The notes beneath the pieces are model-generated. The model saw nothing but the letters and a program-made list of their open reading frames with translations, ran no database searches and had not been told where the DNA came from. From contig JANODG010000003.1 of NCBI GenBank assembly GCA_031412575.1, positions 1-53,250 of the forward strand: a stretch of 53,250 nt of DNA, in the 5' to 3' direction. Shown here piece by piece: positions 19,309-42,391 of this stretch. The translations under genes were made by a program, and so were the position numbers. The DNA comes from Bdellovibrionales bacterium. GTDB lineage: Bacteria > Bdellovibrionota > Bdellovibrionia > Bdellovibrionales > UBA1609. The stretch's first letter is position 1, and every line of letters begins with the position of its first letter.

Positions 19309-20913
19309 TTACCCTTTAGCAATGAGTTTGCTGACTGTATCGTAATCGCTAAATTCTATGGTTTTATCTTTTAGGATTTGGTAATTTTCATGCCCTTTGC
19401 CTGCAATTAAAAGAACGTCATTTGGATCAATAAGATGGTTTAGTCCTAATTGAATGGCTTTCTTACGATCAGGTTCGACATAAATGTGACTGGATTTGAT
19501 ATTGATTGAGGTTTCGAACTTTTCATTTACGTCGAAGGCTTTTAAATCAGTGGGAACATTTTTAAATCCACTTAAAATTTGTTTTAAAATGACATTTGGA
19601 TTTTCACTTCGAGGATTGTCGTTTGTGATAATCTGAAAGTCCGAAAACTCTTCAGCAATTTGACCCATGATTGGCCTTTTTGTGTTGTCTCTGTCCCCGC
19701 CGCAGCCAAATACAACCCCCAACTTACCATTACATACTTGTCTTAAACTTTGTAAAGTTCGCTTAAGCGCATCAGGTGTATGAGCGTAATCCACAAATAC
19801 AGCCTTTGATTTTGTGTTTAAAACTTTTTGAAGTCGACCAGGAACGCCTAAAAAAGTTTTAGAGGAGTTTACAATTTTATCGGAAGGTAAATTTAATGCA
19901 TTTAAGGATAATACGGCCTGACACCAGTTTAACATTTGAAAATGTCCAAGGATTGGAATTTCAAAATCTAATGAATGAGTTTCTTCTTCAGGATTAAAAT
20001 TCAAAATAAGCGAAAATTTAAGTCCATTTAAGTTATGTTTTTTAAGAAAAACCAAGTTAAGTTTGCTGTTTTCATTTTTAGATTTTAACTGATGGTAGAG
20101 GCTAAGAATTTCAGTATTTTTATTAAGAGTTCTTTGGTCGTAAACTTCTAATAGAATTTCAACCTGTCCAAAATCTGGTAAATAATTTTTTACAAAATTG
20201 TCATTGTAATTTAAAACCGAAATTTTATTTTTTTTATTTGAATTCCTAAGAAGCTCTTCAAACAATTTAATTTTACTTAAATAGTAATGCTCCATCGTCT
20301 TGTGATAATCCAGATGATCATTTGTTAAATTAGAAAATATGGCAGCATCTAAAAATAAATCCTTCGCACGATTTTGATCTAAGGCGTGACTTGAGATTTC
20401 TAAGGCTACGGCTTTGGCTCCCGCTTCGCGCATTTGATCCAAGCGAGGGAATAACACGTCAGATCCCGGCGTAGTTAATTCTGTGGGCCATTTCTTCGTT
20501 TGATTTGAAATAGTTAAATGATGATCAATGGTTCCAAGAACTCCGCACGGTAAATTCGAATGATTTAAAATGTGCTCGACCATTAACGAAGTCGAAGTTT
20601 TACCGTTTGTTCCCGTGATCCCAACTAGAAACAAATCTTGATCTGGATTTTGTGATTTCAATTTCCATGCAGATGCCCAAGCTGAGCTAGAATCCTCTAC
20701 AACTAAAATCTCAAAATTATTTAAATCTTCGAAAAAGGAATTATCTTCGACAACAAAACAACTGCAGCCTTGCTGAACTACGGATTTTAAAAAATCATGA
20801 CCGTCGTGTTTCGTTCCACGTAAAGCAAAAAAAACAGAGTTTGAGTCTGCTTTCCTAGAGTCACTTACAAATGACTTGCTCAAATGCGACTTTAAAAAAT
20901 CTAAGCTTTTCAT
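19309..20913 (-). CDS. murE: UDP-N-acetylmuramoyl-L-alanyl-D-glutamate--2,6-diaminopimelate ligase
   Basis: ITGTNGKTSTSLM P-loop, and a DNPR motif (ITNDNPRSENP) indicating meso-DAP specificity. Confidence 0.95.
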   Translation of the reverse strand: MKSLDFLKSHLSKSFVSDSRKADSNSVFFALRGTKHDGHDFLKSVVQQGCSCFVVEDNSFFEDLNNFEILVVEDSSSAWASAWKLKSQNPDQDLFLVGITGTNGKTSTSLMVEHILNHSNLPCGVLGTIDHHLTISNQTKKWPTELTTPGSDVLFPRLDQMREAGAKAVALEISSHALDQNRAKDLFLDAAIFSNLTNDHLDYHKTMEHYYLSKIKLFEELLRNSNKKNKISVLNYNDNFVKNYLPDFGQVEILLEVYDQRTLNKNTEILSLYHQLKSKNENSKLNLVFLKKHNLNGLKFSLILNFNPEEETHSLDFEIPILGHFQMLNWCQAVLSLNALNLPSDKIVNSSKTFLGVPGRLQKVLNTKSKAVFVDYAHTPDALKRTLQSLRQVCNGKLGVVFGCGGDRDNTKRPIMGQIAEEFSDFQIITNDNPRSENPNVILKQILSGFKNVPTDLKAFDVNEKFETSINIKSSHIYVEPDRKKAIQLGLNHLIDPNDVLLIAGKGHENYQILKDKTIEFSDYDTVSKLIAKG

Positions 20914-21041: not shown

Positions 21042-21578
21042 TTGAATCATTCTAATATGAAGATTTGGTTGTCACTTTCATTTATTTTTTCTATCTGTCA
21101 GCCTTACGTTCAAGCAAATAGCTTTAAACACAATTTAATTAATAAAAAAATGGGAGGCCTTATGGGCGCTATTAGCCCTGTAACCACTGGAACTCTTCAC
21201 AACATCGAGGTTAAAAACATTAATAACGAGCTTATTGGTGAAATTATCATCCAGGGCACGTTTTCTAACCGTGAAGATAACTCTCCCATAAAGCCAAGCG
21301 AATTGCTTGAATATCCACAAAGGCGCGTGATTTCTGAACTGATCTCAGTCTCAGCTTCGGTTCAATTTAAATTCAAAGTGGTAAATATTAAAGCCGAAAT
21401 TATAGCCTCAAAGGATGAGCAAAAGGCATTGAATAGCGTCGCTAACGAGCTGGATAAAAACAAAGGCCTAAAAATATCAAAATCCGAGACTATCGTGCCT
21501 GGTAATCCAGAATTTAAAGCTGCTCTCGTGAAACATTTAAAATCGCAATATAACCTAGCAGCAGAATTCCTGCGATAA
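21042..21578 (+). CDS. Hypothetical secreted protein
   Basis: The ORF opens at TTG 21042. ATG 21057 (MKIWLSLSFIFSICQPYVQA) gives a cleaner signal peptide. No recognisable domain. Confidence 0.45.
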   Translation: MNHSNMKIWLSLSFIFSICQPYVQANSFKHNLINKKMGGLMGAISPVTTGTLHNIEVKNINNELIGEIIIQGTFSNREDNSPIKPSELLEYPQRRVISELISVSASVQFKFKVVNIKAEIIASKDEQKALNSVANELDKNKGLKISKSETIVPGNPEFKAALVKHLKSQYNLAAEFLR

Positions 21579-21767
21579 GGACTTGGTTTCACATGAAATG
21601 CGGCTTTTTAAAACGGACTGAAATGCAAAAAAGCTGACCAAATAAAACCCATCTCGGTAATTTATTCATGAAATCAAAGCGCACTTAGTGAAACTTAAAG
21701 TCCTGGACTATTATGGTTTCTAAGAAATCGGTTAATTTGAATAGAATTTAACTCTAGGAGTAACTTT

Positions 21768-22670
21768 TTGAATATAAAAGACTTTGTAACATTTGGACTA
21801 GTTTTAATTACGAGCGTTTACGCGGTCGGGGCTACTTGTAATACAAAGAAAATTTCTGAACGTGAGATTCTTATTGAGATGGGTGAAAAGAAAATTTTGG
21901 TTTTGGGTTGGAGACACGTTGATCCATCGGGATCTACCCAGGACGATATCCTATCATTATTCAATCAAGCCAATGCCGTTAAAACGTGCGGAGAGTTTTC
22001 AAAGATTATGGAAAATGCTCTAAAGATTTACTCTTCAAATTATGCAGAAGGTGCACGAGTTTTAAAAACCTTAGATCAATTCAATTCATTATACGGGATT
22101 GATTTTATCGGTGACGAACAAGATCCTGAGGATTCGAGATTACAAGCGCAGGCTTTAAAAACCTATGATTCGATCTTTGATATCAGATTGAAATTTTGTC
22201 CCTTATCCGAGCTTGTAAGTCGTGTTCGACTTATTCTACCTGGTCCACGTATGGTCTTTTTGCAACAAAATCCCAAAGTTCAATTGATTGGTTTAGAGGA
22301 TGCTGCACTTAAACAAAAAGCTTCTGATATTATGAGTCAGGAAATGCCCTCCATAGATTTTGCAAAGCTATCGCCGGAAATTTTAGACCTTCTATCAAAT
22401 ATTCAGAACGATATCGTCTCCAATACGATCATTCAAGATTCTAAAATCGAAACTGTTTACAAATTAGCACTCAAAGATGCTCCGGACGCCGCTGAAGATA
22501 TTCTATTTTCTCTTAAACAATACCAAGAATTTATCCAAACTTCTTTTGATCGAAGTATTGCAATGGCAAATAACGCCGCTGCACTTCAGGGAAATGTAGC
22601 TATTGTTGTAGGCGAAGCCCACTCCGGTCAAATCGCTGAGCAAATCTTAAAATCTTGTTTGAAAAATTAA
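21768..22670 (+). CDS. Exported Tiki/TraB/PrgY/GumN-superfamily-like protein (possible lipoprotein)
   Basis: TTG start. The signal peptide ends in VYAVGATC. An N-terminal GxxH-type motif (ILVLGWRHVDPSGS) is paired with a C-terminal DRSIAMANN...VAIVVGEAHSGQIAEQIL, resembling the ERDxxMA...VvGaGHxxG signature of TraB/Tiki enzymes. Confidence 0.5.
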   Translation: MNIKDFVTFGLVLITSVYAVGATCNTKKISEREILIEMGEKKILVLGWRHVDPSGSTQDDILSLFNQANAVKTCGEFSKIMENALKIYSSNYAEGARVLKTLDQFNSLYGIDFIGDEQDPEDSRLQAQALKTYDSIFDIRLKFCPLSELVSRVRLILPGPRMVFLQQNPKVQLIGLEDAALKQKASDIMSQEMPSIDFAKLSPEILDLLSNIQNDIVSNTIIQDSKIETVYKLALKDAPDAAEDILFSLKQYQEFIQTSFDRSIAMANNAAALQGNVAIVVGEAHSGQIAEQILKSCLKN

Positions 22671-22937
22671 TCGAAAAATACAAAAAAAAGCTAGTTGCTT
22701 TTGCCATTTCACTTTGATTATTCGAACTGTCTCATTCTAAGACTAAATCCCAACTTTTTAAAATATCCAATTAAAATTTATTTGTTCGTAACACTTTGGC
22801 CGCTTTTTGATTTTTTGATACCTTTATGTATCAAATTGAATCAGAAATTTACGGTATTCTTTAGGTGACAGTTTTTTGCACCGATCAATTTACATAACGC
22901 AGATAAGTTAATTTGCTTGCAGTAATTTGGAAGTTTT

Positions 22938-23777
22938 ATGTTTAGAGTCCAGCAATTAAAACTGATGAAGCTTTTAATGGTACCTCTTGGGATATCCTTT
23001 TTACTTTTTAGTTTTCAAAACTGTATGCCAGGTTTTCAAAGTGGAGATTTAGCTTTAAGCGTTCCTCTTCCCTCAAATAGCGAAGTACAAACCAAAGCCT
23101 TAGGTATTTTAAGAACCAACTGCCAAACTTGCCATATCAATCAAAGTTTAGGCGGGATTTCTAATATAGCAAACGCCACTCATTTATTATCCACTGGTTT
23201 AATCATTCCAGGAAATATAAATTCCCCACTTATGCGTTCGATTAATGATAACAGTATGCCTCCGTCTGGACCCTTAACAGAAGCTGATAAAATTGATTTA
23301 AGAAACTGGATTTTAGCTTTAGCAGGACAAGGGCCCATCCAAGAACAAATAGATTTAAGTTTTAATTTCAACGTCTCATTTGACCCTTTAATTTTCCCAA
23401 ATCGTTTAAATAAGCTGAACTACGTTATTGGATCCAACCCTGGAACCAGCTTAAACGCTTTGATAAGTAACCGATTTTTATTAGGTGATTATAATTTTTC
23501 TACCAACGTGATTCCAAATTACTCTTGGGGCGCGACCGAAATGCTGAACTGGTCCGAAAACTTACAGTCATTTTGTTCTTCTCCAAATTTTTTAAATCAA
23601 TTCGCTTGGATAACAGCCGCTGAAGTTTTGATGGAACGCGCTTATGGAAGGATGCCTGACAGCCAGGACATGTCTATTTTTAATGAGATCAACACGATTA
23701 ATAATATTAATGATCAAGAGAGAATTCAAATTTTATGTTTAACTCTTTTAACATCCATGGAGTTCATAACAAAATGA
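22938..23777 (+). CDS. Lipoprotein with a planctomycete-type cytochrome c domain plus a DUF1595-like segment; N-terminal half of a split DUF1592-family protein
   Basis: The signal ends in LLFSFQNC. There is a heme c motif CQTCH, with a downstream MPP (DNSMPPSGPLTEADKIDLRNWI). LMERAYGRMPDSQDM...ERIQILCLTLLTSMEFI resembles RAFRRP...ILASPxFLY of the unsplit paralogue at 34831. Confidence 0.65.
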   Translation: MFRVQQLKLMKLLMVPLGISFLLFSFQNCMPGFQSGDLALSVPLPSNSEVQTKALGILRTNCQTCHINQSLGGISNIANATHLLSTGLIIPGNINSPLMRSINDNSMPPSGPLTEADKIDLRNWILALAGQGPIQEQIDLSFNFNVSFDPLIFPNRLNKLNYVIGSNPGTSLNALISNRFLLGDYNFSTNVIPNYSWGATEMLNWSENLQSFCSSPNFLNQFAWITAAEVLMERAYGRMPDSQDMSIFNEINTINNINDQERIQILCLTLLTSMEFITK

Positions 23778-24859
23778 TCAAGCTCATTATTATTTTCTCT
23801 TTTACTTTGTGCTGTCACTTGAACCTTAATCAAGCTTTAGCGCAAACAACGACTCCTCAGCAAGCTTTAAGCTACATGTCTTATTTAAGCTCTAAATTGA
23901 TTAATCGTCCTTTAACTTCGCAAGAATCTTCTTTAATTAGATCGCAAGGTGAAAGAGCTTTTGCGCAAATCATTGATGGCTGGTCCAACGATTCAAGATT
24001 TCATCAAAGCGCAAAACAATTTGTTGAACTTTTACTAGCAACTAACGGATCTTCAAACGGAATTAATTTTGATATTCCTGGGTATCTGGGATTGGACATC
24101 GCGCGAAGAAAGCGACCATACACCGATTTAATCACAGCATCTTCATGCGTAAATGCTCAAGGCGATACTACAGCCTGCGATACAGGGGCCCCGTTTAATG
24201 CAGGTGTCTTAACAACACGAGCGTTTTTAAGAAAAGCTCAAGGGGCTTATAACATTGGTCGCGCTGGGCGAATGATGAGTGAATTTTTATGCACTACCTA
24301 TCCCTTACCCGAAACTCTTGAACCCAGACTTCGCGCACAAGATATGGTTCCTGAATTTGCGACAATGTCAGGAGCAATCACTTTTGGAAATGGAAATAAT
24401 TGTTACAGCTGCCACTCTCAGTTTGGACAGCACACTCAGTTTTTTGTTAAATTTGATTTGGATGGAACCTATAGAGCAGGTGCTACAGGTTTACAAAGTC
24501 CCGGAGCCACCGATGGCTATTCTCAGAATAATCTTTTGGTTTCACACTTGAATGATCCAGTAAGAGCAAGAGACGAAAGTAGCCAAATCCTAGGTCAAAG
24601 AGCCGCAAATTTACAAGAAGCCTCGAGAGTCATTGCGAATAGCACTTTGTTTTTACCCTGTGCTGTAAAACATTTAATGCGTCATTATTTAAAATTAAGC
24701 GATCAAAATATGGCTAGCATTAAACCCGATCTATTTAGAACAATTGCTGAAGAGGCTAAAGTTTTAAATCAAAATCCAAGTTTTTCCCATTTAATCCAAG
24801 CCATTGTAACTAACAAAAGCGTTTTTGAGTCTTTCAAAAAAACAGGAGCTTTACCATGA
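23774..24859 (+). CDS. Exported DUF1592/DUF1588/DUF1585-like protein with CxxCH; C-terminal half of the split family member
   Basis: ATG 23774 overlaps the upstream TGA (ATGA). It has its own signal peptide MIKLIIIFSFTLCCHLNLNQALA. GVLTTRAFL...GRAGRMMSEFLC and NNCYSCHSQFGQHTQFFVKFDLDGTY are collinear with RGGLITHASFL...SRGSWILNNVLC and [24 protein letters not shown] of the 34831 protein. Confidence 0.65.
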   Translation: MIKLIIIFSFTLCCHLNLNQALAQTTTPQQALSYMSYLSSKLINRPLTSQESSLIRSQGERAFAQIIDGWSNDSRFHQSAKQFVELLLATNGSSNGINFDIPGYLGLDIARRKRPYTDLITASSCVNAQGDTTACDTGAPFNAGVLTTRAFLRKAQGAYNIGRAGRMMSEFLCTTYPLPETLEPRLRAQDMVPEFATMSGAITFGNGNNCYSCHSQFGQHTQFFVKFDLDGTYRAGATGLQSPGATDGYSQNNLLVSHLNDPVRARDESSQILGQRAANLQEASRVIANSTLFLPCAVKHLMRHYLKLSDQNMASIKPDLFRTIAEEAKVLNQNPSFSHLIQAIVTNKSVFESFKKTGALP

Positions 24860-26403
24860 AATTACCTGATTTAGAAAATATGCCTCCTTTGGAGCGTCGG
24901 GAATTCTTAAAAAAATTAAGCGCCACACTTGCGACTTCGCCTTTGTTTTCAAACGCAATTAAAGTAACTTTGCTCGATATGCTTTTGGGATCTTCTGCTT
25001 CAGCACAAGTGAACAGTCCGATGAATTTTTTAGAGGTTAATTTTCGTGACCAGTGGGATTTCGGTTCTGTTTTTGTAGCTCCAAGTTTAGCTCGTAATTA
25101 TGAAAATATTCGTAATCAAACATCAATTTTCGAAATGCCAACTGCTGAAAGAAATAATTTTTACTTATCTCCTAGGGCTTCAGAACTTAGGCCTCACTTA
25201 GATCACATTGCCGTCATTGAAACTGGCGAGTGTGTTTTACCAGGAAACTCATCAGTGCACGGGCATGAGGCTGGTAACCCATTACGTTCACCGGGGCGCA
25301 CACAAACTTCTGGTGGTGGGAAAATTGATATGGCCACTGTAGATCGAAGACCCGGAGGAAGAGCTGCGGGGAATGAAGTTTTATACAGTTCGACTCCAAC
25401 TCCTGCAATTTTACACAACTACTATTCAAAAATGCAAAATCCCAACTTGCGAAATGGAACTTTACTTCGAAGTTCAATCAGACCAGACGTACACACGTAC
25501 TATCATTTCGAAGCAAATTTAGCGAATGCTCAATTGACAAGGTATTTTAGTAAAAGCACTTTTTTAAGTGCCTTTCAAAACGTAGGTGGTGTTCCAACTA
25601 GGCCGCCTGTAATAAAGCGCCACGGTAATGTCATTACAAGTATGCTTAAGAAATTAGATCAGCGTTTTATGCAAAGATCTTTGGCTGACACCAATCAAAG
25701 AAATAAACAAAATTTAAGTGTTGATGAATTTGCGAGGTTACTAAATGCCCAACCTGAAGTGATTCAGGTGGATTTAACGGCTGCGGAGTTGGCCGCGTGG
25801 CAAAATAATATTGGACCACAGCTTAATTGCGCCGGTGATGAAGCCTCAAACTGCACTCCAGCCCAAGGTGCATGGGGTGCTGGGGAAATCTTTGCCCACG
25901 CTTTTAAACTCTTCAGATCCGGAACCGTAAGAACAGTTGCTATCGACTTTGACATGACAGATGTACATTCTAATAGAACGCCGCTTTTGATGAACACGCA
26001 AGCTGAGCAAAGCGGAAGAACTTTAGCGCGAATGATTCAAAATTTAAAAGACAGTGGACTTTGGGAAAACACAATTATTGCAATGTACACTTTAGATGGA
26101 AGTCGTTCTCCGGTTTCGAATTCGACTGGTGAAAATACTAAAAACGCAATTGTTCTTGCCGGTGGAAAAATCAGAGGTGGCTATTACGGAGATGTTAGTC
26201 TTTCAACGAATGGCACTGTCACTTACTTTAGACCTAACGATTCTGGCCAACCTATAGCTCAAGGAAATACAGGTCGTGACATGAGAGTTCCTGCTGCTGA
26301 CATTTATAAAACGGTGGCTTCACTTTCGGGTGTTCCAATGAACATGATCGACAGCTTCGCAGATGTGCGCGCTGGGCGCATGTTAAGTTATTTAATACGT
26401 TAG
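24856..26403 (+). CDS. Twin-arginine-exported DUF1552-like protein
   Basis: ATG 24856 overlaps the upstream TGA (ATGA), with AGGAG 7 nt upstream. TAT motif ERREFLKKLSATLA. It is collinear with, but divergent from, the DUF1552 protein at 36523 (AVIETGE...VHGHEAG versus IVSGLQ...AGHHADA, and a C-terminal LAGGKIRGGYYGD versus VAGRGGGFKTGQHH). Confidence 0.6.
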   Translation: MKLPDLENMPPLERREFLKKLSATLATSPLFSNAIKVTLLDMLLGSSASAQVNSPMNFLEVNFRDQWDFGSVFVAPSLARNYENIRNQTSIFEMPTAERNNFYLSPRASELRPHLDHIAVIETGECVLPGNSSVHGHEAGNPLRSPGRTQTSGGGKIDMATVDRRPGGRAAGNEVLYSSTPTPAILHNYYSKMQNPNLRNGTLLRSSIRPDVHTYYHFEANLANAQLTRYFSKSTFLSAFQNVGGVPTRPPVIKRHGNVITSMLKKLDQRFMQRSLADTNQRNKQNLSVDEFARLLNAQPEVIQVDLTAAELAAWQNNIGPQLNCAGDEASNCTPAQGAWGAGEIFAHAFKLFRSGTVRTVAIDFDMTDVHSNRTPLLMNTQAEQSGRTLARMIQNLKDSGLWENTIIAMYTLDGSRSPVSNSTGENTKNAIVLAGGKIRGGYYGDVSLSTNGTVTYFRPNDSGQPIAQGNTGRDMRVPAADIYKTVASLSGVPMNMIDSFADVRAGRMLSYLIR

Positions 26404-26465
26404 GACTTGGAGCGTGATGTCTAGCGTCCTTATTTTCATATAAGATTATCAAAGGGTGTTCTTAT

Positions 26466-27218
26466 ATGAATAATTTCGATTTCAACTCAATTATCGACTT
26501 AGATAAAAATCAAATCGATTTTTATTTTAGCACTAGATTAAAAAACTCTTACGACCAAAAACAAGTTGAATTTATTAGACCATCCGCTGAAGAAATTATT
26601 CAGGCCGTACCTATGGAAACTTTATTTATTCCCTGGAAAGATTTATCGGATGGATTAAGACTAAGCAAATTAAATGATTATCAACCAAGAGTTGTTCAAG
26701 TTCAGCAACGCCGGGCAACTTGGTCTACTCGTCTCAAAAAAGACAATTACAAATCAATTATTGATCAACTGTTTCATTTTATTGAACGAAATCTTGCTGA
26801 CATTTACCGATACAAATTTTTGGAAGAATCTAATCCAAGCTTAGACATGCAAGCTTGCACTGCTTTACTCCAAAGACTTTTTCTGAATCAAGAGCCATTT
26901 CGGTTAATGCCTAAAATCAATCTTCCTGACCAAAAGATTTGCCTTGAAGTGTTTAACAAATACTTTCCTGAGCCTGAGTTTAAGGTTTCATATTACAGTA
27001 ATGAATTTTTAATTCAAAAAAGTGTAGGGGGCTTTCAATTCCTTGAAATTGGAGAACGTGGGGGAATAGAAAAGCAGTTTGAATCTGAAGATCTTCAAGA
27101 AGTGCAATTTGTAGCTTTTAAGAATATGAGTTCGATTGATTATGTGGTTGAAGATCGACAATTTGTTTTTGATTATAATCAGATTTATCATTTGAAGGAG
27201 TTTAGGGAAAAGGATTAG
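26466..27218 (+). CDS. Hypothetical cytoplasmic protein
   Basis: 250-aa ORF with no signal peptide and no motif I recognise. It is the last gene of the plus-strand island. Confidence 0.45.
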   Translation: MNNFDFNSIIDLDKNQIDFYFSTRLKNSYDQKQVEFIRPSAEEIIQAVPMETLFIPWKDLSDGLRLSKLNDYQPRVVQVQQRRATWSTRLKKDNYKSIIDQLFHFIERNLADIYRYKFLEESNPSLDMQACTALLQRLFLNQEPFRLMPKINLPDQKICLEVFNKYFPEPEFKVSYYSNEFLIQKSVGGFQFLEIGERGGIEKQFESEDLQEVQFVAFKNMSSIDYVVEDRQFVFDYNQIYHLKEFREKD

Positions 27219-27419: not shown

Positions 27420-29330
27420 CTATTCCAGCTGCACTAGAACTTTGGATTTGGAGTGAAGGTTTTCGCCCTCTTGGAAGATGACTTTTGAGACTAAGCCTTG
27501 GCCGTGAAATTTGACTTCGACAGGTTTGTTTTTAAGAATTCGTAAAACTTCACGGACTGTTAATCCATGTAAAGAGTCTGTTGTTGATTTTGCGAGAGGC
27601 GTATATTTACAGTCTTTGTTTTTACAGTCTAATAATTCAGACGGCATAATGTTCGTCGGAATTATGTTTTCTTTGTTCATTAAAAATTGGGCGACCTTTG
27701 AAAACACAGGCGCTGCTGCCTCTGATCCATAGTAATTTTTTTCGGGCTCATCAATTCCTATATAAATAATAAATTTTGGTTTTTCTGCGGGAATCATTCC
27801 TACAAAAGAACTTAAATATTTATCTTGGTGATATCCACCTTTTTCTAAATTCACTTTATTTGCAGTTCCAGTTTTTCCGGCAACTAAGTAGCCCTCGACT
27901 GACGCATTAAATCCTGTGCCCCCGTCTTGAGTCACTTCGGTCAACATGGCTTTTAAAGTTTGCGCAGTTTCTTTAGTCATCACTCGCCGTTGAACTTTTT
28001 CAACTTCTAAATCCATTCCTGAAGCGGCAACTACACTTTCCACCAAGTAAGGCTGTTTCCACATGCCATCACTGGCAATCGCAAGATAAGCTGACGCTAC
28101 TTGAATGGGTGTCGCCGTAAAGCCATGTCCAAAAGATGCTGAAGCCAACATGTGGCTTGGCCATCTTTGCTTACGATATATTCCTTTGGATTCCCCCGGA
28201 AAATCTACTTTGGTTTTTTCCCCAAATCCAAGTTGGTTATAAAACGCACGAGTTTTTTGCTCGCCCACGTTCAAAGCCATTTGAGTTAAAACGACGTTCG
28301 ATGAAACTTTTAATCCTTCGGTTAACGTCATCGTCTGGCACTTAATTTTTTTTGCATCGGAAATAACTCTTCGACCTAATTTAATTTTACCATCAAGGCA
28401 CGCAAATTCACTTCCTGGTCTAAAAACTTTATTTTCTAAAGCGGCGCCAACAGCAAAAGTCTTTATCGTGCTTCCTTGCTCTTGAGCTTCTGTAAAAACT
28501 AAATTCTTTTTAAAAATACCTTTATCATAAATAGCTCGATTTAAATCATAGGTCGGCCACTGTGCCGAAGCCCGCACAGCCCCAGTTTCAACGTCTAAAA
28601 TCAACCCATAGGCAGACTTCGCTTCATGATCTTCCATGGCGCGCTTTAATTGAATTTCCAAAAAACGTTGGTATTCAGAATCTATAGTTAAAAATAAATC
28701 CTGACCCTCTGGAGGCTTATTATATTGTTCGGGGTCCATAAACAGTGGACGACCTTTAGCGTCTCTGGAAACAATAAGTTCCATGTCTTTTCCGGCTAGG
28801 AAATTATTGTACTGATACTCTAGACCCTCTAAGCCTCGCCCATCGGTGCCGACAAACCCAATTACTGAAGATAAAATATCGCGGCCTGGATACTGACGAT
28901 TAGGTTCACTGACAAAATGAATTCCGCTGAAGTTTGCGTTTTCTATTTCTTTTTTTAATTGCGGAGAGATCTTCCGCTTTAACCAAACGAATCTAGATTT
29001 TCTTCGCATCTTATATTCTAATGTTTTCGGATGCGCTTTTAATAGTCTTGCAATTCGACTTGCCGCAAGCCTTGGGTTTTTGATGTTCTGCGGATCTGCA
29101 AAAACAGAATACGTGGGTTCGTTAATGGCGAGTTCTTTGTTCTTTCGATCGTAGATGCGACCTCTGCGTGCTTGAACTTTAACGGTTTTAAAAAACTGGA
29201 TCTTTTTGTATTCGTCTAATCTTTTGTGAGGCAAAATTTGTATATTTGCCCCTTGGCCTAGGATCATGCAAAATATCACAAGCTTGAGTAGAAAAAAAAG
29301 ATGTATGAAATGCTTGATCCTCATACTCAT
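27420..29330 (-). CDS. ftsI: Peptidoglycan D,D-transpeptidase FtsI (class B PBP)
   Basis: N-terminal TM helix plus SxxK (STIK), SxN (SSN) and KTG (AGKTGTA) motifs. dcw position after ftsL. Confidence 0.93.
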   Translation of the reverse strand: MSMRIKHFIHLFFLLKLVIFCMILGQGANIQILPHKRLDEYKKIQFFKTVKVQARRGRIYDRKNKELAINEPTYSVFADPQNIKNPRLAASRIARLLKAHPKTLEYKMRRKSRFVWLKRKISPQLKKEIENANFSGIHFVSEPNRQYPGRDILSSVIGFVGTDGRGLEGLEYQYNNFLAGKDMELIVSRDAKGRPLFMDPEQYNKPPEGQDLFLTIDSEYQRFLEIQLKRAMEDHEAKSAYGLILDVETGAVRASAQWPTYDLNRAIYDKGIFKKNLVFTEAQEQGSTIKTFAVGAALENKVFRPGSEFACLDGKIKLGRRVISDAKKIKCQTMTLTEGLKVSSNVVLTQMALNVGEQKTRAFYNQLGFGEKTKVDFPGESKGIYRKQRWPSHMLASASFGHGFTATPIQVASAYLAIASDGMWKQPYLVESVVAASGMDLEVEKVQRRVMTKETAQTLKAMLTEVTQDGGTGFNASVEGYLVAGKTGTANKVNLEKGGYHQDKYLSSFVGMIPAEKPKFIIYIGIDEPEKNYYGSEAAAPVFSKVAQFLMNKENIIPTNIMPSELLDCKNKDCKYTPLAKSTTDSLHGLTVREVLRILKNKPVEVKFHGQGLVSKVIFQEGENLHSKSKVLVQLE

Positions 29331-34830: not shown

Positions 34831-36519
34831 ATGAAAAACTTGTTTTTTATTAAAAAGAAAACTCTAAAGTCGATGTTTAGTTTAACTCTAATCACATTGA
34901 CGATTCTTTTGTATAATAATTGCGACAGCGGTTTTAATGCAAGCAATGAGTTCTTTAGCGGAAATTCAAACTTCGTATCACAGTGTGAGTCTGGTGCTCC
35001 GCAGGCCAAGATGCAGCTCCACCGTTTAACCAACCAAGAATATATTTACACCATCAAAGATCTTTTCAACGTCGACTTATTAGCATCGAATTTTCCTACA
35101 GCTGATCAAGCCGGAGGAAGTGGCTTTACGAATGAGTACTCACGCATGAACAGAGATACTAATCTTTCTGAAAATGTGACTAACGCTTATTTTGAACTTG
35201 CTATAACAACGGCATCTAGAATCATGACTCAAAATCCAAGTTCGGTTTTAGGTTTAAGTTGCAATACACGATCTGACGCCTGCTACGAGGATTTTTTAAG
35301 AAAATTGAGTCTTAAAGTTTTCAGAAGACCTTTAGTTGAACCTTCAGAAATGACTGCATTTAAAACAATTTTTTCTGCTTACACCAATTTTTCAGAGCCC
35401 GCAGAAGTGGTCTTAGCGACAATGCTAGCTTCACCAAACTACTTATATAAGTCTTATGGTGCGTACTCTGCCCCCGTAAATCAATCTTCTGGCAGAAAAG
35501 TTATATTGAACAATTATGAGCTTGCAACAAGATTGTCTTACCTTCTTTGGGCGTCGGCACCGGATGATGTTTTATTAACAACGGACCTAAGCATATCTGC
35601 AAATTTAGAATCGCAAATCAAACGACTTCTAGCGAGTCCAAAAGCCAGACGTTTATCTTCTGTTTTTGCTGACCAGTGGTTGGATTATTCAAAAGTTGAA
35701 ACCAGTTCTGTTCCAACAGAATTTGCCGTTTCTGCAGCGGTGTTGCAAAGTTCGAAACGTGAAACTGAAGAATTTTTAAATTACGTCATCACGCAAAGTT
35801 CCCGTGCCTTGGATTTATGGGACGCCGATTATTCATTTTTAAATGCAAGTCTTGCAACTCATTACGGAATTTCGGGTGTGACTGGAACCACAATAAATAG
35901 AGTTCCCATTTCAAACTCTAGCAACGGATCTAACCGTGGCGGCTTAATCACTCATGCAAGTTTTTTAATTAACACTTCAGGCGGGACTTTAGAAACTCAT
36001 CCCGTTAGTAGAGGTTCATGGATTTTAAATAACGTACTTTGCGATTCTGTTCCACCACCACCACCGGGCGTAACAGCACTGCCTGATGCAAGTTTAGCAA
36101 GTAGCCCTAGAGAACTTGCAGAACTTCACGCCAGTCAAGTTAGCTGTAAAGCCTGTCACGCACGCATGGACCCCTTGGGTTTTGGTTTAGAGAATTACGA
36201 TGCGAGCGGAAAGTGGATCACAAGTTATAATTTAGGAAAGTGGGCTGGTCGCGGCATTGCCGTAGAAGCTGATGGAATTTTAGATGGGGAAAGATTCAAT
36301 GGCCCAGGAGAACTTAAAAAATTAGTGGCCGAAAATCCCGAAACCAGCATTTGCATGTCACGAAAAATTGTAAGTTATGCTTTAGGCCGCAATATGAATT
36401 CTAAAGACCACTGTCTTTCGGAAGATGTGGGTCTAAATGTAATTTCTAAGGGTGGGTCTTTTGAAGCCGCTTTAAAAAAAATCATTAACAGTCCTTCGTT
36501 TAAAGAAAATGGCAGGTAA
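34831..36519 (+). CDS. Lipoprotein of the DUF1587/DUF1595/DUF1592/DUF1588/DUF1585 multi-domain family
   Basis: The signal ends in LLYNNC. Motifs: HRLTNQEYIYTIKDLF (DUF1587-like), KVFRRPL...MLASPNYLYK (DUF1595/1592), RLSYLLWASAPDD, RGGLITHASFL...SRGSWILNNVLC..PPPPPG (DUF1588), CKACHARMDPLGFGLENYDASGKW (DUF1585). Confidence 0.8.
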   Translation: MKNLFFIKKKTLKSMFSLTLITLTILLYNNCDSGFNASNEFFSGNSNFVSQCESGAPQAKMQLHRLTNQEYIYTIKDLFNVDLLASNFPTADQAGGSGFTNEYSRMNRDTNLSENVTNAYFELAITTASRIMTQNPSSVLGLSCNTRSDACYEDFLRKLSLKVFRRPLVEPSEMTAFKTIFSAYTNFSEPAEVVLATMLASPNYLYKSYGAYSAPVNQSSGRKVILNNYELATRLSYLLWASAPDDVLLTTDLSISANLESQIKRLLASPKARRLSSVFADQWLDYSKVETSSVPTEFAVSAAVLQSSKRETEEFLNYVITQSSRALDLWDADYSFLNASLATHYGISGVTGTTINRVPISNSSNGSNRGGLITHASFLINTSGGTLETHPVSRGSWILNNVLCDSVPPPPPGVTALPDASLASSPRELAELHASQVSCKACHARMDPLGFGLENYDASGKWITSYNLGKWAGRGIAVEADGILDGERFNGPGELKKLVAENPETSICMSRKIVSYALGRNMNSKDHCLSEDVGLNVISKGGSFEAALKKIINSPSFKENGR

Positions 36520-36522
36520 TTT

Positions 36523-38025
36523 ATGAGCAAAAAAAATAACAATAAGTCTTTTAATCGTCGCCAATTTCTTGAAGGTAGTTTCTATGGGATGACTTTAAAA
36601 TTAATGCTGCCCACAATGGTGAGCTTAATTCCTAAAGATTTAAGATCACAAATGGTTCCCAATGCCATGAATTTATTTGTGATGTATTTACCAGATGGCA
36701 CATACCCTCACTCAATCAACCCTAATGGAACTTTAAGATGGGATCGAACCATGTCTAGATGGTATCCCGCGGTTGGTGCTTTACCAACAGTTCTGCCAAC
36801 AATGTTGAATAAATTAAATGGCATGCAAAGTGACTTTTCGATTGTCAGTGGTCTTCAAAATTCGGCAGGTACAACCTGTGCGGGTCATCACGCTGATGCC
36901 ATCGCAAGATATTTAACGGGCAACAGCTTTCAAAACAATTGGTGTACTGATCTTTATTCTGTAAATGACAGTATAGATCAAATCATTGGTAAACATCTTT
37001 CTGGCAGAACTGATGCCTCCTCTATCCAAAAATTTATTTTAAGTGCGAAAATGCGAAATGTCGGTGGAGCAGATATGGGCACTGGCGCTAACCGTGAATG
37101 GGGCCATAACTTATCTTATTTAAATAATAAACCAGCTTACAGTTATACAAATCCAGGACAAATGTTCACGGACACTTTTGGATTACCAACAGACCCACAA
37201 ATTACCGCCGCCTTAAAAAAGCGTAAAAGTGCATTGGACTTTTTACTTCCAGACATTCAAGCCAAACGAGCTTTAGCTTCTGCTGAAGACCGAATTATTT
37301 TAGATCGTTGGTTAACTAATTACGAGGAATTGCAAAGAACTTTAGAGACCACAGGCACAGGCCCTGTATGCACAAGACCAACTGCTCCAGCGGCGACTTT
37401 AGATGCGGCCGCAAATCGAGGACAAGACTACAATGCCATAGTTAGAGCTTATATGGATATAATGCTGGCTTCCATGGAATGTGGAATTAGAAAAGTTGGT
37501 ATTTTACAAATGCAATCGGAAGCTGCCGACATTAACAATTTTTATAATCAAATTGTAGCCACTGAAGATCTTCATTCGGAAGTTGGTCGTACTACTCGAA
37601 TCACCGACATGGCCACAAGTCAGCACATTGGTATGGCCCATTACGGCAGTGATGGCGCCGATATGATCAATTATTTAAAGCTTGTCACATTAAATAATTA
37701 CTATTTAAGACAATACCGTTATTTTGTACAAGGATTAAAAACCCGTGGTCTGTTTAATAATTCGATTGCAACCTATGGTTACGGATTTAAAGATGGGAAT
37801 CACACCAGTGCTCCAGCGGACATGCCATTTTTAGTCGCCGGCAGAGGCGGCGGATTTAAAACAGGTCAGCATCATAGGTTAACGACACTTCGTCCCGAGC
37901 AGACCGGTTATAATTTGTCAGCAATGACTCCACTTCCTAATTTTTGGGCTTCAGTTTTAGGTAAATACGGGATCACTTACAGCCACGCTAATACGAGCGG
38001 AAACACCAATCAACTTTTCGATTAA
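36523..38025 (+). CDS. TAT-signal DUF1552-family protein
   Basis: Starts 3 nt after the upstream stop. Twin-arginine motif NRRQFLEG. SIVSGLQN...CAGHHADAIARYLTGN and C-terminal DGNHTSAPADMPFLVAGRGGGFKTGQHH are typical of DUF1552, the usual partner of DUF1592-family proteins. Confidence 0.8.
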   Translation: MSKKNNNKSFNRRQFLEGSFYGMTLKLMLPTMVSLIPKDLRSQMVPNAMNLFVMYLPDGTYPHSINPNGTLRWDRTMSRWYPAVGALPTVLPTMLNKLNGMQSDFSIVSGLQNSAGTTCAGHHADAIARYLTGNSFQNNWCTDLYSVNDSIDQIIGKHLSGRTDASSIQKFILSAKMRNVGGADMGTGANREWGHNLSYLNNKPAYSYTNPGQMFTDTFGLPTDPQITAALKKRKSALDFLLPDIQAKRALASAEDRIILDRWLTNYEELQRTLETTGTGPVCTRPTAPAATLDAAANRGQDYNAIVRAYMDIMLASMECGIRKVGILQMQSEAADINNFYNQIVATEDLHSEVGRTTRITDMATSQHIGMAHYGSDGADMINYLKLVTLNNYYLRQYRYFVQGLKTRGLFNNSIATYGYGFKDGNHTSAPADMPFLVAGRGGGFKTGQHHRLTTLRPEQTGYNLSAMTPLPNFWASVLGKYGITYSHANTSGNTNQLFD

Positions 38026-39671: not shown

Positions 39672-40712
39672 GTGAAAAAGAAAGACTGGATACTTATTAC
39701 TTCTCTTATTGTTGCGATCATTGCTGCGGACCAGATTTCAAAAGCTTGGGCACTTACTGAACTTAGAATTTTCGGTCGATGGCTAACGCCGTTTATTGGA
39801 TGTTTTTTACATAAAAATCACGGTGCTATGCTGGGAAGTTTTTCGGATCTTCCACCACTTTTAAGAATTGTAAGTTTGGCCACCGGCGGAGTTTTTCTAA
39901 TATTTATTTTCGCAATCATAATGAGTGTACTGCAACACAGGCTTATCGTTTTACGTACCGGTATGTCCATTCTTTTAGGTGGCATCATGGGCAATGTAAT
40001 TGATCGCATCACCCATGGACCAGTGACGGATTTTATTGTGATCAAAGCTTTTGGTAAATTCAGTCCTGCGTTTAATATCGCAGATGCTACACAATGGGTT
40101 GGATATGTCCTAGTTTGTTATTCTATTTTTAAAGATGGTCACTTAATTTGGCCTGATGACAATAAACGAAATCAGTTTTGGATCGACCGTAAATATCAAC
40201 TTAAATACTGCTTAACCTTTGTGGGTTATTCAGCTGTGTTTTCTTTAATTTTAGGTGTTTACAGTTACACGTTTTTAAAAGTTATTATCACTGAGTCTTT
40301 AAAAAATTCAGTTATGATTTCAAACCAAGCTTTGTTTCCATTTGTCATCGTCTTTACGATAGTAAGTACAACTTTTCTACTTGTGGTTTTTTTACTTGGA
40401 TTAAGATTGTCACACCGAAGTGTAGGACCAGTTTTTGCGTTTAGAAGTTTTATCAACGACGTCAGATCAGGTAAAAATCGCAATTTGAAATTAAGAAGCC
40501 ACGATGAATTTAAATATTTAGAGATTGAAGCTAAGCTTTTAAAGCGCGACTACAGGCACTTTCAAAGACTTAAAAGGTATTCTGAAAAATTAAGATCTCA
40601 AATTGAGATGATTCAAAAGCATGAAGCTTATGCAAATGTAATTCAATTAGAGAATTTCAAAAATCAAGAAGCTGAATCCAAGCACCTTAAAACTGGTAGC
40701 GATCAAGAATAA
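39672..40712 (+). CDS. lspA: Lipoprotein signal peptidase II fused to a C-terminal 2-TM plus HAMP-like/coiled-coil extension
   Basis: GTG start. Residues 1 to about 165 carry LspA motifs (DQISKAWAL, HKNHGAMLGSF, GGIMGNVIDR, VTDFI, FNIADATQWVG). Residues about 170-346 add two TM helices, SHRSVGPVFAFRSFINDVRSGK, and a charged coiled-coil tail. Confidence 0.8.
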   Translation: MKKKDWILITSLIVAIIAADQISKAWALTELRIFGRWLTPFIGCFLHKNHGAMLGSFSDLPPLLRIVSLATGGVFLIFIFAIIMSVLQHRLIVLRTGMSILLGGIMGNVIDRITHGPVTDFIVIKAFGKFSPAFNIADATQWVGYVLVCYSIFKDGHLIWPDDNKRNQFWIDRKYQLKYCLTFVGYSAVFSLILGVYSYTFLKVIITESLKNSVMISNQALFPFVIVFTIVSTTFLLVVFLLGLRLSHRSVGPVFAFRSFINDVRSGKNRNLKLRSHDEFKYLEIEAKLLKRDYRHFQRLKRYSEKLRSQIEMIQKHEAYANVIQLENFKNQEAESKHLKTGSDQE

Positions 40713-40843: not shown

Positions 40844-42391
40844 ATGAGATTCGGTCAGCTTTCATCTATCCTATTCGCTTTTATTCAGATATTGATTTTT
40901 TCTTTCGCTACACTTGCTAACGAAAATCAAAATTCTAATGAATTTAAAATATTAAAAAATCCGGTTGAAATCACGAATGTAAAATCTGAAAGATCCGAAA
41001 ACGGCCAGCGTAATTTTAAATTGAACATTAAAATTGCTGACGATCATTTTTTGTACACTGAAGATTTAGAAATTATTTCTGAACTTGAAGGGCTAAATAA
41101 TTCCTCTTTTTCAATCACTTCGTCGCCAGTCATTGAGTTTAAAGATAAATTTTCTAATGGCGAAATCAAAAAGGGCATGAAATCCGAAGGGGTCCTAAAT
41201 TTTAATGTGCCTATGGGTTTTAACTACAACTCAAAATTTAAACTTAAATTCCGAGCGTGCACAGAAGAATTCTGTTACCTACACAAATTTATTGAATTTG
41301 ATCATCAGCAGATTGTTGATAATATGGAGACCAAATCTTCATCCTTGTTAAATTTTAGCATTGATTTCGAAAACACATCCGTTTTTTGGATTTTTGTTTT
41401 TGTATTTTTAGCTGGAATTTTAACTTCGTTTACACCTTGTATCTTTCCACTGATTCCGATCACACTGACCTTAATTAGAAATAATGCAAGTTTAGGTCGC
41501 CACCAAAGTTTTTTTAAGACTTTGATTTTTGTATTTGGGATTGCGTTCACTTATGCCATTTTGGGTTTAGTCGCTGCCACAACGGGTACTTTTTTCGGAA
41601 GCTTATTATCAAATGTTTATGTATTAATTGGTATTTCAATTATATATTTCTCGATGGCTTTAAGCATGTTTGGTTTTTTTGAAATACAGTTTTTTTCTAA
41701 ACTACAAAATAAAGTTTCAAAAGTTTCAACTCAATCCAATTTAGGAATTTTTAGTTTTGGTATGGTCACGGGCATTTTTGCAAGTCCATGTGTTGGACCA
41801 GTGTTGGTTGCGGTATTAACGTATGCGGCCCAAACTAAAAATTTAACATTTTCGTTTTTCTTACTTTTCATTTACGCCTTAGGCCTTGGACAAATATTTC
41901 TTATTTTAAGCCTTTTTTCGAACCTCATTGATAAATTACCTAGATCTGGCAATTGGTTAAACGGGATCAAATATGCCCTTGGCATTATGCTTATACTTGC
42001 AGGGGCTTACTTTTTAGTTCCGGCATTTAAAGCCTTAAGTTCAAAGAAGAATGTCAATTACACGGCCTTACTCAATGAGTCCTTAAAGGAAAATAAAATC
42101 GTTATCGTTGATTTTAAAGCTGATTGGTGTGCCGCCTGTAAAGAGCTTGAACTGAATACTTTTTCAGACCCTGAAATTAAGTCGTTCTTAGATAAAAACA
42201 TCTTTATAGCGATAGATGTGACGATCACTAACGACGACACTAACGAACTTTTACAAAAATATGATGTTGTTGGCCTCCCTCACGTTATGTTTTTCGATAA
42301 GAACGGAAATTTGCTTCCAGAATTGACAATTTCAAGCTATATAACCGCTGAAGAAATGTTTAAGAGAATTCAAAAAATTCCTCAAAACTAA
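40844..42391 (+). CDS. dsbD: Thiol:disulfide interchange protein DsbD
   Basis: N-terminal domain with CTEEFCY, a DsbD/CcdA membrane core (TPCIFPLIPI and SPCVGPVL), and a C-terminal thioredoxin fold with WCAAC. Confidence 0.88.
   Translation: MRFGQLSSILFAFIQILIFSFATLANENQNSNEFKILKNPVEITNVKSERSENGQRNFKLNIKIADDHFLYTEDLEIISELEGLNNSSFSITSSPVIEFKDKFSNGEIKKGMKSEGVLNFNVPMGFNYNSKFKLKFRACTEEFCYLHKFIEFDHQQIVDNMETKSSSLLNFSIDFENTSVFWIFVFVFLAGILTSFTPCIFPLIPITLTLIRNNASLGRHQSFFKTLIFVFGIAFTYAILGLVAATTGTFFGSLLSNVYVLIGISIIYFSMALSMFGFFEIQFFSKLQNKVSKVSTQSNLGIFSFGMVTGIFASPCVGPVLVAVLTYAAQTKNLTFSFFLLFIYALGLGQIFLILSLFSNLIDKLPRSGNWLNGIKYALGIMLILAGAYFLVPAFKALSSKKNVNYTALLNESLKENKIVIVDFKADWCAACKELELNTFSDPEIKSFLDKNIFIAIDVTITNDDTNELLQKYDVVGLPHVMFFDKNGNLLPELTISSYITAEEMFKRIQKIPQN

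Follow-up and report, generated by a model that had tools for sequence, protein, structure and literature searches.

A conserved three-gene DUF1501 cassette, found mostly in Bdellovibrionota and Myxococcota, with a split and probably DUF1592-related partner protein

Few gene families of the Planctomycetota and Verrucomicrobiota are as expanded as the PSCyt/PSD proteins and the DUF1501 or DUF1552 proteins that partner them, and because these organisms hold dozens of copies, elaborated with extra domains, genetic work on them is hard. We know of no function that has been assigned to these families since 2004. Here we describe a compact operon of this kind, at positions 22938 to 26403 (+ strand) of a 53,250-nucleotide stretch of DNA from a Bdellovibrionales bacterium, the whole of which we refer to as the window. 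Gene 1 (22938..23777, 279 residues) combines an export signal with an atypical lipobox, a class-I cytochrome c module and a helical domain that we call X; gene 2 (23774..24859, 361 residues when read from the ATG inside an ATGA overlap) encodes an exported helical protein with an invariant CxxCH; and gene 3 (24856..26403, 515 residues) encodes a DUF1501 protein of the alkaline-phosphatase/sulfatase-like superfamily with a twin-arginine translocation (Tat) signal. An earlier note, made from the sequence alone, had read the operon as a DUF1592-family protein split into two separately exported halves and accompanied by a DUF1552-like partner. Our analysis upholds the split, replaces the partner and leads us to consider it probable that the three products form one exported complex.

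In the Planctomycetes-Verrucomicrobia-Chlamydiae group, PSCyt1/PSCyt2/PSD1 (DUF1549/DUF1553) proteins occur in modules with DUF1501 (Kamneva et al. 2012, PMC3542564; He et al. 2017, bioRxiv 10.1101/150078), and the same sources give a pairing rule under which PSCyt3 goes with DUF1552 and PSCyt2 with DUF1501. The DUF1800 and DUF1501 pairs of Proteobacteria are conserved and transferred together, with no known function (Goncalves et al. 2016, PMC5122149). Finally, there are the DUF1592-type proteins (PSCyt1-PSD3-PSD5-PSD4-PSCyt3-PSD2) with a DUF1552 partner. One such pair lies in the window itself, outside the operon, at 34831..38025 (+); it consists of a DUF1592-type lipoprotein (34831-36519) with the Pfam domains PSD3-PSD5-PSD4-PSCyt3-PSD2, followed by a protein (36523-38025) that matches DUF1552 with an E value of 2.5e-35.

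Compared with the DUF1592/DUF1552 systems, the operon has homologous parts in collinear order, starting with the DUF1595-like one and continuing to the C-terminal end, with an invariant CxxCH at the same position. It also begins with a cytochrome c, as do most DUF1592 members, and places the gene for an exported protein or lipoprotein ahead of that for a twin-arginine partner. It differs from them in being far smaller, very divergent and split into two or three genes, in having no detected DUF1587, and in occurring mostly in Bdellovibrionota and Myxococcota and not in Planctomycetota, Verrucomicrobiota or Acidobacteriota. With the PSCyt2/PSD1 modules it shares a Tat-signal DUF1501 protein beside a CxxCH-bearing exported partner, but gene 2 is significantly similar to PSCyt3/PSD2 and not to PSCyt2/PSD1, there is an extra subunit (X) and the partner is much shorter. 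The DUF1800/DUF1501 pairs likewise join a helical exported partner to a Tat-signal DUF1501 protein; however, a heme motif has not been reported for DUF1800, and DUF1800 found no match in gene 1 or gene 2 at E values up to 1. An exported CxxCH-bearing protein with a Tat-signal DUF1501 or DUF1552 partner is, as a kind, already known and uncharacterised. What is new is the compact three-gene form, the X subunit that carries no annotation, the combination of DUF1501 with a PSCyt3-like protein, an occurrence largely limited to Bdellovibrionota and Myxococcota, and the lack of a solved structural relative.

Conserved gene content and coupled starts

The three open reading frames share one strand, and open reading frame calling recovered their coordinates. 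Each junction is an ATGA in which the stop codon of one gene overlaps the start codon of the next, at 23774-23777 between genes 1 and 2 and at 24856-24859 between genes 2 and 3, and GGAG and AGGAG stand about 10 nucleotides upstream of the gene 2 and gene 3 starts, respectively. The public record gives gene 2 as a protein of 374 residues that begins at 23735, 13 codons earlier than the ATG in the overlap. This call does not agree with the orthologues, which begin at the shorter, 361-residue start, and no Shine-Dalgarno sequence precedes 23735.

We surveyed related loci by a tblastn scan of one genome per species, which found relatives of gene 2 in 117 species, and examined the best 80 loci. 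Most of these belong to Bdellovibrionota and Myxococcota (Nannocystaceae, Polyangia, Myxococcaceae), and Bradymonadales and Oligoflexales contribute some; nearly all come from metagenome-assembled genomes, the closest relatives being such genomes of Pseudobdellovibrionaceae/Bdellovibrionales. With one exception, every locus of the 80 has a DUF1501 gene after gene 2. Of the 74 loci whose contig extends far enough for X to be detected, 73 have it, so that X, gene 2 and DUF1501 occur together in 73/74. Gene content is therefore constant while gene order is not: X lies directly upstream of gene 2 in 54 loci (X-gene2-DUF1501), downstream of DUF1501 in 16 (gene2-DUF1501-X) and is fused with gene 2 in 3. 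Separate X and gene 2 genes are thus the commonest state of what is an old family (70/73 loci with X), found across Bdellovibrionota and Myxococcota, and the notion that the split is a local event of this one genome does not survive the survey. Where X and gene 2 are adjacent, a 4-nucleotide overlap with an in-frame start codon is present at 51/54 junctions, and the same is true of 58/79 junctions between gene 2 and DUF1501. Since the overlaps recur to this extent, coupled translation is a trait of the family, and the earlier description of a translationally coupled three-gene operon holds for the window and beyond it.

The cytochrome c module is the variable part of the cassette. It is fused to X in 8 of the 80 loci, all in the window's own clade, and it is supplied by a separate diheme gene in 3. 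The latter are Bdellovibrionales loci in which X is devoid of a cytochrome module and a diheme cytochrome c lipoprotein gene (two CxxCH) directly follows DUF1501 (L002, 7636-8259; L019, 8532-9203 on the minus strand; L043, 3284-3928). A divergent sister family system, on a metagenome contig (L087, 1241-5188), divides the same four modules among separate genes, arranged in a different order: an X-like lipoprotein of 200 residues, a Tat-signal DUF1501-like protein of 484 residues with no Pfam match on record, a cytochrome c of 210 residues with a hydrophobic C-terminal anchor ending in RRRRKK, and a gene-2-like protein of 395 residues. The gene-2-like members of this sister family match PSCyt2 weakly at the N-terminus and also match PSCyt3/PSD2 weakly.

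Around the operon, a promoter and terminator scan gave signals no better than those in shuffled sequence, an Rfam search of the window returned no RNA family and base composition showed no anomaly.

A partner protein in two halves

The first 29 residues of gene 1 (22938..23024) form a probable lipoprotein signal that ends in FSFQNC, with Cys29 as the candidate lipidated residue and Asn at position -1. This lipobox, FQNC, departs from the pattern [LVI][ASTVI][GAS]C, but [FY]QNC recurs in all 8 orthologues that have a cytochrome c-X fusion; X proteins of myxobacteria have a canonical LAGC. At several signal-like N-termini in the window, Asn or Gln takes the place of the usual Gly, Ala or Ser before Cys, those encoded at 22938, 34831, 47745 (-) and 48680 (-) ending in FQNC, YNNC, LNQC or LTNC, and this may represent a lineage-specific lipobox. 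The window also carries a gene for LspA, signal peptidase II (39672-40712, +), whose 346-residue product matches the Pfam domain only over residues 12-153 and continues in a C-terminal extension of about 190 residues, which may be relevant to the odd lipoboxes.

The cytochrome c module occupies residues 48-131 (23079..23330), with CQTCH at 62-66 and, in the segment SMPPSG (106-111), a putative Met ligand at M107. The two Cys, the His and the Met-Pro pair are invariant across 11 related modules, all 11 of which match both PSCyt1 and Cytochrome_CBB3 in Pfam; the module of the window itself stays under the cut-offs of these two models (18.5 and 13 bits). Against the Protein Data Bank (PDB), the family profile matches c555, CcoP and c6 cytochromes with E values from 2e-7 to 1e-3, those for c555 and CcoP lying between 2e-7 and 2e-5. 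The family to which the gene 1 module belongs therefore shows the marks of a class-I cytochrome, namely a CxxCH, a distal Met, a domain of about 80 residues and matches to cytochrome c models, in agreement with the cytochrome-c-like module that had been proposed here.

The remainder of gene 1 is domain X (residues 136-279; 23343..23774), a helical domain of about 145 residues with two conserved Cys, which we aligned from 67 sequences. No member has a significant Pfam family, although weak matches to PSD2 were seen in 9/67 and to PSD5 in 1/67. X is modelled by AlphaFold2 within a single-chain orthologue (see below) with a predicted local distance difference test score (pLDDT) of 91-98. A word search with gene 1 returned only 4 close homologues.

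Gene 2, read from the ATG in the overlap, begins with MIKLIIIFSFTLCCHLNLNQALA, a Sec-type signal peptide (23774..23842) with a predicted cut after ALA, judged by eye, that would leave a mature part starting at QTT. Orthologues begin at the same position with similar signals, and the myxobacterial members carry lipoboxes. The CYSCH motif (residues 210-214; 24401..24415) lies within an invariant FGNGxxCxxCHxQFxxHxQ; C210, C213, H214, Q216, F217, H220 and Q222 are unchanged in 41 gene 2 sequences, as are further Cys residues, and the motif lines up with the CxxCH that the DUF1592 family likewise keeps unchanged. Both the signal peptide and the second CxxCH attributed to gene 2 are thus present and shared by its orthologues. 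Together with the signal-like N-terminus of gene 1 and the Tat motif of gene 3, described below, this gives each of the three genes an export signal of its own, as had been claimed.

The gene 2 family is small, a word search giving 68 homologous clusters of 330-455 residues and a HMMER profile search only 254 representatives among 1.84 billion proteins (E <= 0.001). Its relationship to the DUF1592 family is remote. Residues 106-350 (24089..24823) are homologous to the end of DUF1592, to DUF1588 (PSCyt3) and to DUF1585 (PSD2), in that the gene 2 family profile aligns by hhalign with a profile of the 34831 family (40 sequences) at a probability of 94% and E 1.4e-7, onto residues 316-557 of the 34831 protein. 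Pfam matches in the family are weak, to PSCyt3 in 37/41, PSD2 in 8/41 and, at the N-terminus, PSCyt2 in 2/41, and PSD4 and PSD5 are matched by 0/41 at E values up to 1. The gene 2 protein of the window scores 22.1 bits against PSCyt3/DUF1588, below the cut-off of 27. The assignment of gene 2 as DUF1592/1588/1585-like is therefore sound as a statement of remote homology, but not one that the protein in the window earns by Pfam cut-offs. Its AlphaFold2 model is mostly helical and confident (pLDDT 92.3; predicted template modelling score, pTM, 0.88), and a Foldseek comparison of this model with the PDB found no structural relative (best E 1.3).

Single-sequence comparison says little about whether genes 1 and 2 together correspond to the 34831 protein. 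By BLASTP against the 34831/36523 pair, genes 1 and 3 had no match and gene 2 reached E 0.03 only; none of the Pfam DUF1592 set (PF07631, PF07637, PF07627, PF07624, PF07626) exceeded its gathering score in genes 1 and 2; and NCBIfam has no family for the three proteins of the operon or for the comparison pair. An X profile compared with the single 34831 sequence gave E 0.47. X alone against the DUF1592-family profile gave a weak, non-significant match in the PSD5 region (probability 13%, E 0.002), as did the N-terminus of gene 2 alone.

The link is made by proteins in which X and gene 2 are one chain, which account for 14 of about 58 full-length representative clusters. At least 5 of these 14 also carry an N-terminal cytochrome c, that is, the arrangement of gene 1 followed by gene 2; a short linker stands in place of the gene 2 signal peptide, and the CxxCH is invariant in these fused forms too. 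Compared as a profile, the single chains align to the 34831 family with a probability of 97.4% and E 1.4e-11 over 349 collinear columns, running through PSD5 (DUF1595; the last ~55 residues of X), DUF1592, DUF1588 and DUF1585, the PSD5 match of X being significant only when the single-chain orthologues are taken as one profile. Because single chains exist and their profile aligns collinearly, both the DUF1595-like tail ascribed to gene 1 and the view of a divided protein are essentially correct. Collinearity with the 34831 protein covers the end of X and gene 2 but not the first half of gene 1, for which there is no counterpart: the 34831 protein is without a cytochrome c module. In genes 1 and 2, in turn, nothing was detected that corresponds to the DUF1587 part of the 34831 protein. 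In one single chain of 621 residues (P0200) the DUF1501 gene comes next, with a 4-nucleotide overlap. Its AlphaFold2 model has a pLDDT above 90 throughout X and gene 2 (pTM 0.79; the cytochrome part is poorly modelled), and Foldseek found no match to it in the PDB (best E 0.5). In a crude neighbour-joining tree without support values, the clade of the window lies beside a grade of single-chain forms, which would fit fission of a cytochrome c-X-gene 2 ancestor in the lineage of the window.

Gene 3 and its DUF1501 identity

Gene 3 scores 38 bits with the Pfam model DUF1501 (PF07394), for which the cut-off is 27, and matches it (E 1.5e-9) over only positions 126-335 of 390; the model is also matched by 50 of 53 gene 3 orthologues. 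DUF1552 (HXXSHH, PF07586), the identity that had been suggested for it, is absent from gene 3 and from all 53 orthologues at E values up to 1; BLASTP found no match between gene 3 and the DUF1552 protein of the window, and an hhalign comparison from the DUF1501-like family was not significant. We therefore reject the DUF1552 identity, and with it the view that the operon is an instance of the DUF1592-type/DUF1552 family pair, since a DUF1501 gene adjoins gene 2 both in the window and in all but one related locus. As the cassette pairs a PSCyt3-like protein with DUF1501, the published rule that joins PSCyt3 to DUF1552 and PSCyt2 to DUF1501 does not hold throughout.

The twin-arginine signal, by contrast with the family assignment, was correctly identified. 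Gene 3 has ERREFLKK at residues 13-20 (RREFLKK at 24895..24915); none of the 53 orthologues departs from R14 or R15, F17 hardly varies, and 19 of the 53 match the Pfam TAT_signal model. With regard to the catalytic part, the gene 3 family profile finds sulfatases in the PDB below threshold (E 0.15-0.7), over DxH and LK..GL..T.I...D.G motifs, and conserved Asp and His of the family stand at positions expected for the alkaline-phosphatase superfamily. The resemblance to S1 sulfatases is weak, confined to the DxH and C-terminal metal-ligand motifs (E 0.15 or worse), and the formylglycine motif is missing. A redox cofactor motif was not seen in gene 3.

A candidate exported complex

We favor the possibility, which we regard as probable, that the operon specifies one exported complex in which a split scaffold with heme motifs is joined to a Tat-exported enzyme of the alkaline-phosphatase superfamily. 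The three genes would encode subunits of a single periplasmic and probably membrane-anchored assembly, made in fixed proportions. Within it, the lipoprotein encoded by gene 1 and the Sec-exported product of gene 2 would rebuild a protein that is one chain in sister lineages, and this cytochrome c-X-gene 2 protein, compact as it is, would be very distantly related to the DUF1592-type 'planctomycete cytochrome' proteins. The break would have fallen between the DUF1595-like and DUF1592-like parts, where gene 2 would have gained its own signal peptide. The gene 3 product, exported folded via Tat, would be the likely catalytic subunit and the scaffold of X and gene 2 its obligate partner. The proposal builds on the conserved gene set, the coupled starts, the homologies and the fused forms, and from these we infer that X and gene 2 likely come together as a helical unit, the counterpart of the single chain, and that this unit likely binds DUF1501.

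Other parts of the proposal are more tentative. CxxCH is the signature of heme c attachment, which in the periplasm requires export of the protein, and heme c could be attached at both CxxCH sites of the operon; the conserved Cys pairs in X and gene 2 are a feature of exported proteins. A full-length DsbD gene (40844-42391, +), with N-terminal, transmembrane and thioredoxin domains, follows the DUF1592/DUF1552 pair, the gene for a solute-binding lipoprotein and lspA at a distance of a few genes, and it fits periplasmic thiol reduction and heme c attachment chemistry. The heme or hemes might serve electron transfer or redox control. Gene 3 might be an esterase or transferase that depends on metal and acts on an ester of the phosphate or sulfate type in an envelope, prey or glycan substrate.

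There is a hint of carbohydrate ligands or glycan substrates in two relatives. A ricin-B lectin gene (L085, 188-685) precedes a fused orthologue, with a 4-nucleotide overlap at the start of the latter, and one gene 2 relative of 835 residues (P0208) has a C-terminal extension of about 290 residues with repeated Q-x-W-like motifs. DUF1592- and PSCyt2-type proteins are often found with carbohydrate-binding modules (PMC3542564; bioRxiv 10.1101/150078).

Several points weigh against the complex that we propose, or against parts of it. Physical interaction is inferred from fusions, coupling and co-occurrence only. The CxxCH of gene 2 lies in a fold unlike any solved cytochrome, and the Met that follows the CxxCH His by three residues in the DUF1592 family is replaced by Phe. 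The sulfatase signature C/S-x-P-x-R is absent from gene 3, and no nucleophile could be named. Class-I cytochrome c occurs in just 11/80 loci, with none within 6 kb in the other 69; for this reason electron transfer via such a cytochrome cannot be a core step. The direction of the event, fission or fusion, depends on the neighbour-joining tree, and the split state dominates elsewhere. Finally, the searchable literature holds no functional or biochemical study of DUF1501, DUF1552, DUF1592, DUF1800 or PSCyt.

How the proposal stands against its rivals can be judged from the same data. Genes 1 and 2 might be nothing but a recently frameshifted, decaying DUF1592-type gene, in keeping with the overlap of the gene 1 stop with the gene 2 start and with the existence of fused relatives. 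We give this hardly any credence, as the conservation data refute it: the two are separate genes in 70/73 loci with X, the same overlap is kept at 51/54 junctions, X is found downstream of DUF1501 in 16 loci, gene 2 and its orthologues carry signal peptides or lipoboxes of their own, X and gene 2 each hold many invariant residues, and the gene 2 model reaches a pLDDT of 92. A pseudogene reading was rejected on these grounds, and the earlier contention that the split is functional, not decay, is borne out by the conserved set (73/74) and the kept overlaps (51/54, 58/79). The requested survey of how often the split occurs gives the same picture, separate genes being the rule by locus and single chains a minority by cluster (14 of about 58), and the profile searches left a sub-threshold DUF1588-like gene 2, with no DUF1592-set cut-off reached and no DUF1552.

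A possibility that we doubt, but take more seriously, is that the cassette does nothing but hydrolyse or bind. In that case the gene 2 CxxCH would be hemeless, with a structural, metal-binding or disulfide role, X and gene 2 would serve only to bind substrate or to anchor a DUF1501 hydrolase, and the cytochrome c would be a lineage-specific add-on. The lack of a cytochrome c module at 69/80 loci speaks for this, as does the gene 2 fold, which matches no known cytochrome, and DUF1501 pairs also with DUF1800, for which no heme motif is reported (PMC5122149). Yet the CxxCH motif, including the His, never varies among the 41 gene 2 sequences, nor does it in the fused forms or the DUF1592 family; the gene 2 product takes the Sec route, as periplasmic heme attachment demands; and cytochrome c has been recruited repeatedly, as a fusion, as a separate gene and in the sister system. 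At the other extreme, the cassette might be a redox enzyme in which DUF1501 performs or receives an oxidative step, such as oxidation of a cofactor or substrate, and electrons pass to or from the respiratory chain by way of the hemes of gene 2 and gene 1. Electron transport was proposed for DUF1501/PSCyt modules from motifs alone (Kamneva et al. 2012, PMC3542564), the operon has two CxxCH modules, diheme cytochrome genes stand beside the cassette in L002, L019 and L043, and Tat export often marks redox enzymes that bear cofactors. We nevertheless hold this to be unlikely, because DUF1501 belongs by sequence to a hydrolase/transferase superfamily and shows no redox cofactor motif, and because a class-I cytochrome is not near most loci.

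The operon sits within a block of six + strand genes (21042-27218), the other three of which, the open reading frames at 21042, 21768 and 26466, match no Pfam family. The block is flanked on the opposite strand by 19309-20913 (-) and 27420-29330 (-), with a Mur ligase gene and a gene for an FtsI-type penicillin-binding protein with a PASTA domain. With these opposite-strand genes on either side, the block looks like an insertion inside a cell-division and cell-wall gene cluster; its guanine-plus-cytosine content is not anomalous, and its position is not conserved among relatives.

With regard to what the cassette may offer, it delimits helical domain X, which has no Pfam family, and a confidently predicted fold without a solved structure. 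The three genes amount to about 1,150 residues, and the window holds a single copy of the cassette plus one canonical DUF1592/DUF1552 pair. As some of the Bdellovibrio-like and myxobacterial host lineages are genetically tractable, one operon with three small proteins and two CxxCH sites would be a practical entry point to these families. A bolder reading, which we regard as a long shot, is that the cassette is the minimal PSCyt/PSD plus DUF1501/DUF1552 system and that the heme-bearing scaffold is needed for the chemistry of the enzyme and is not a mere anchor, through a new mechanism in which, for example, activation depends on heme or ester cleavage is coupled to an oxidation. If this were true, a helical heme scaffold of unsolved fold would take part in alkaline-phosphatase-superfamily chemistry.

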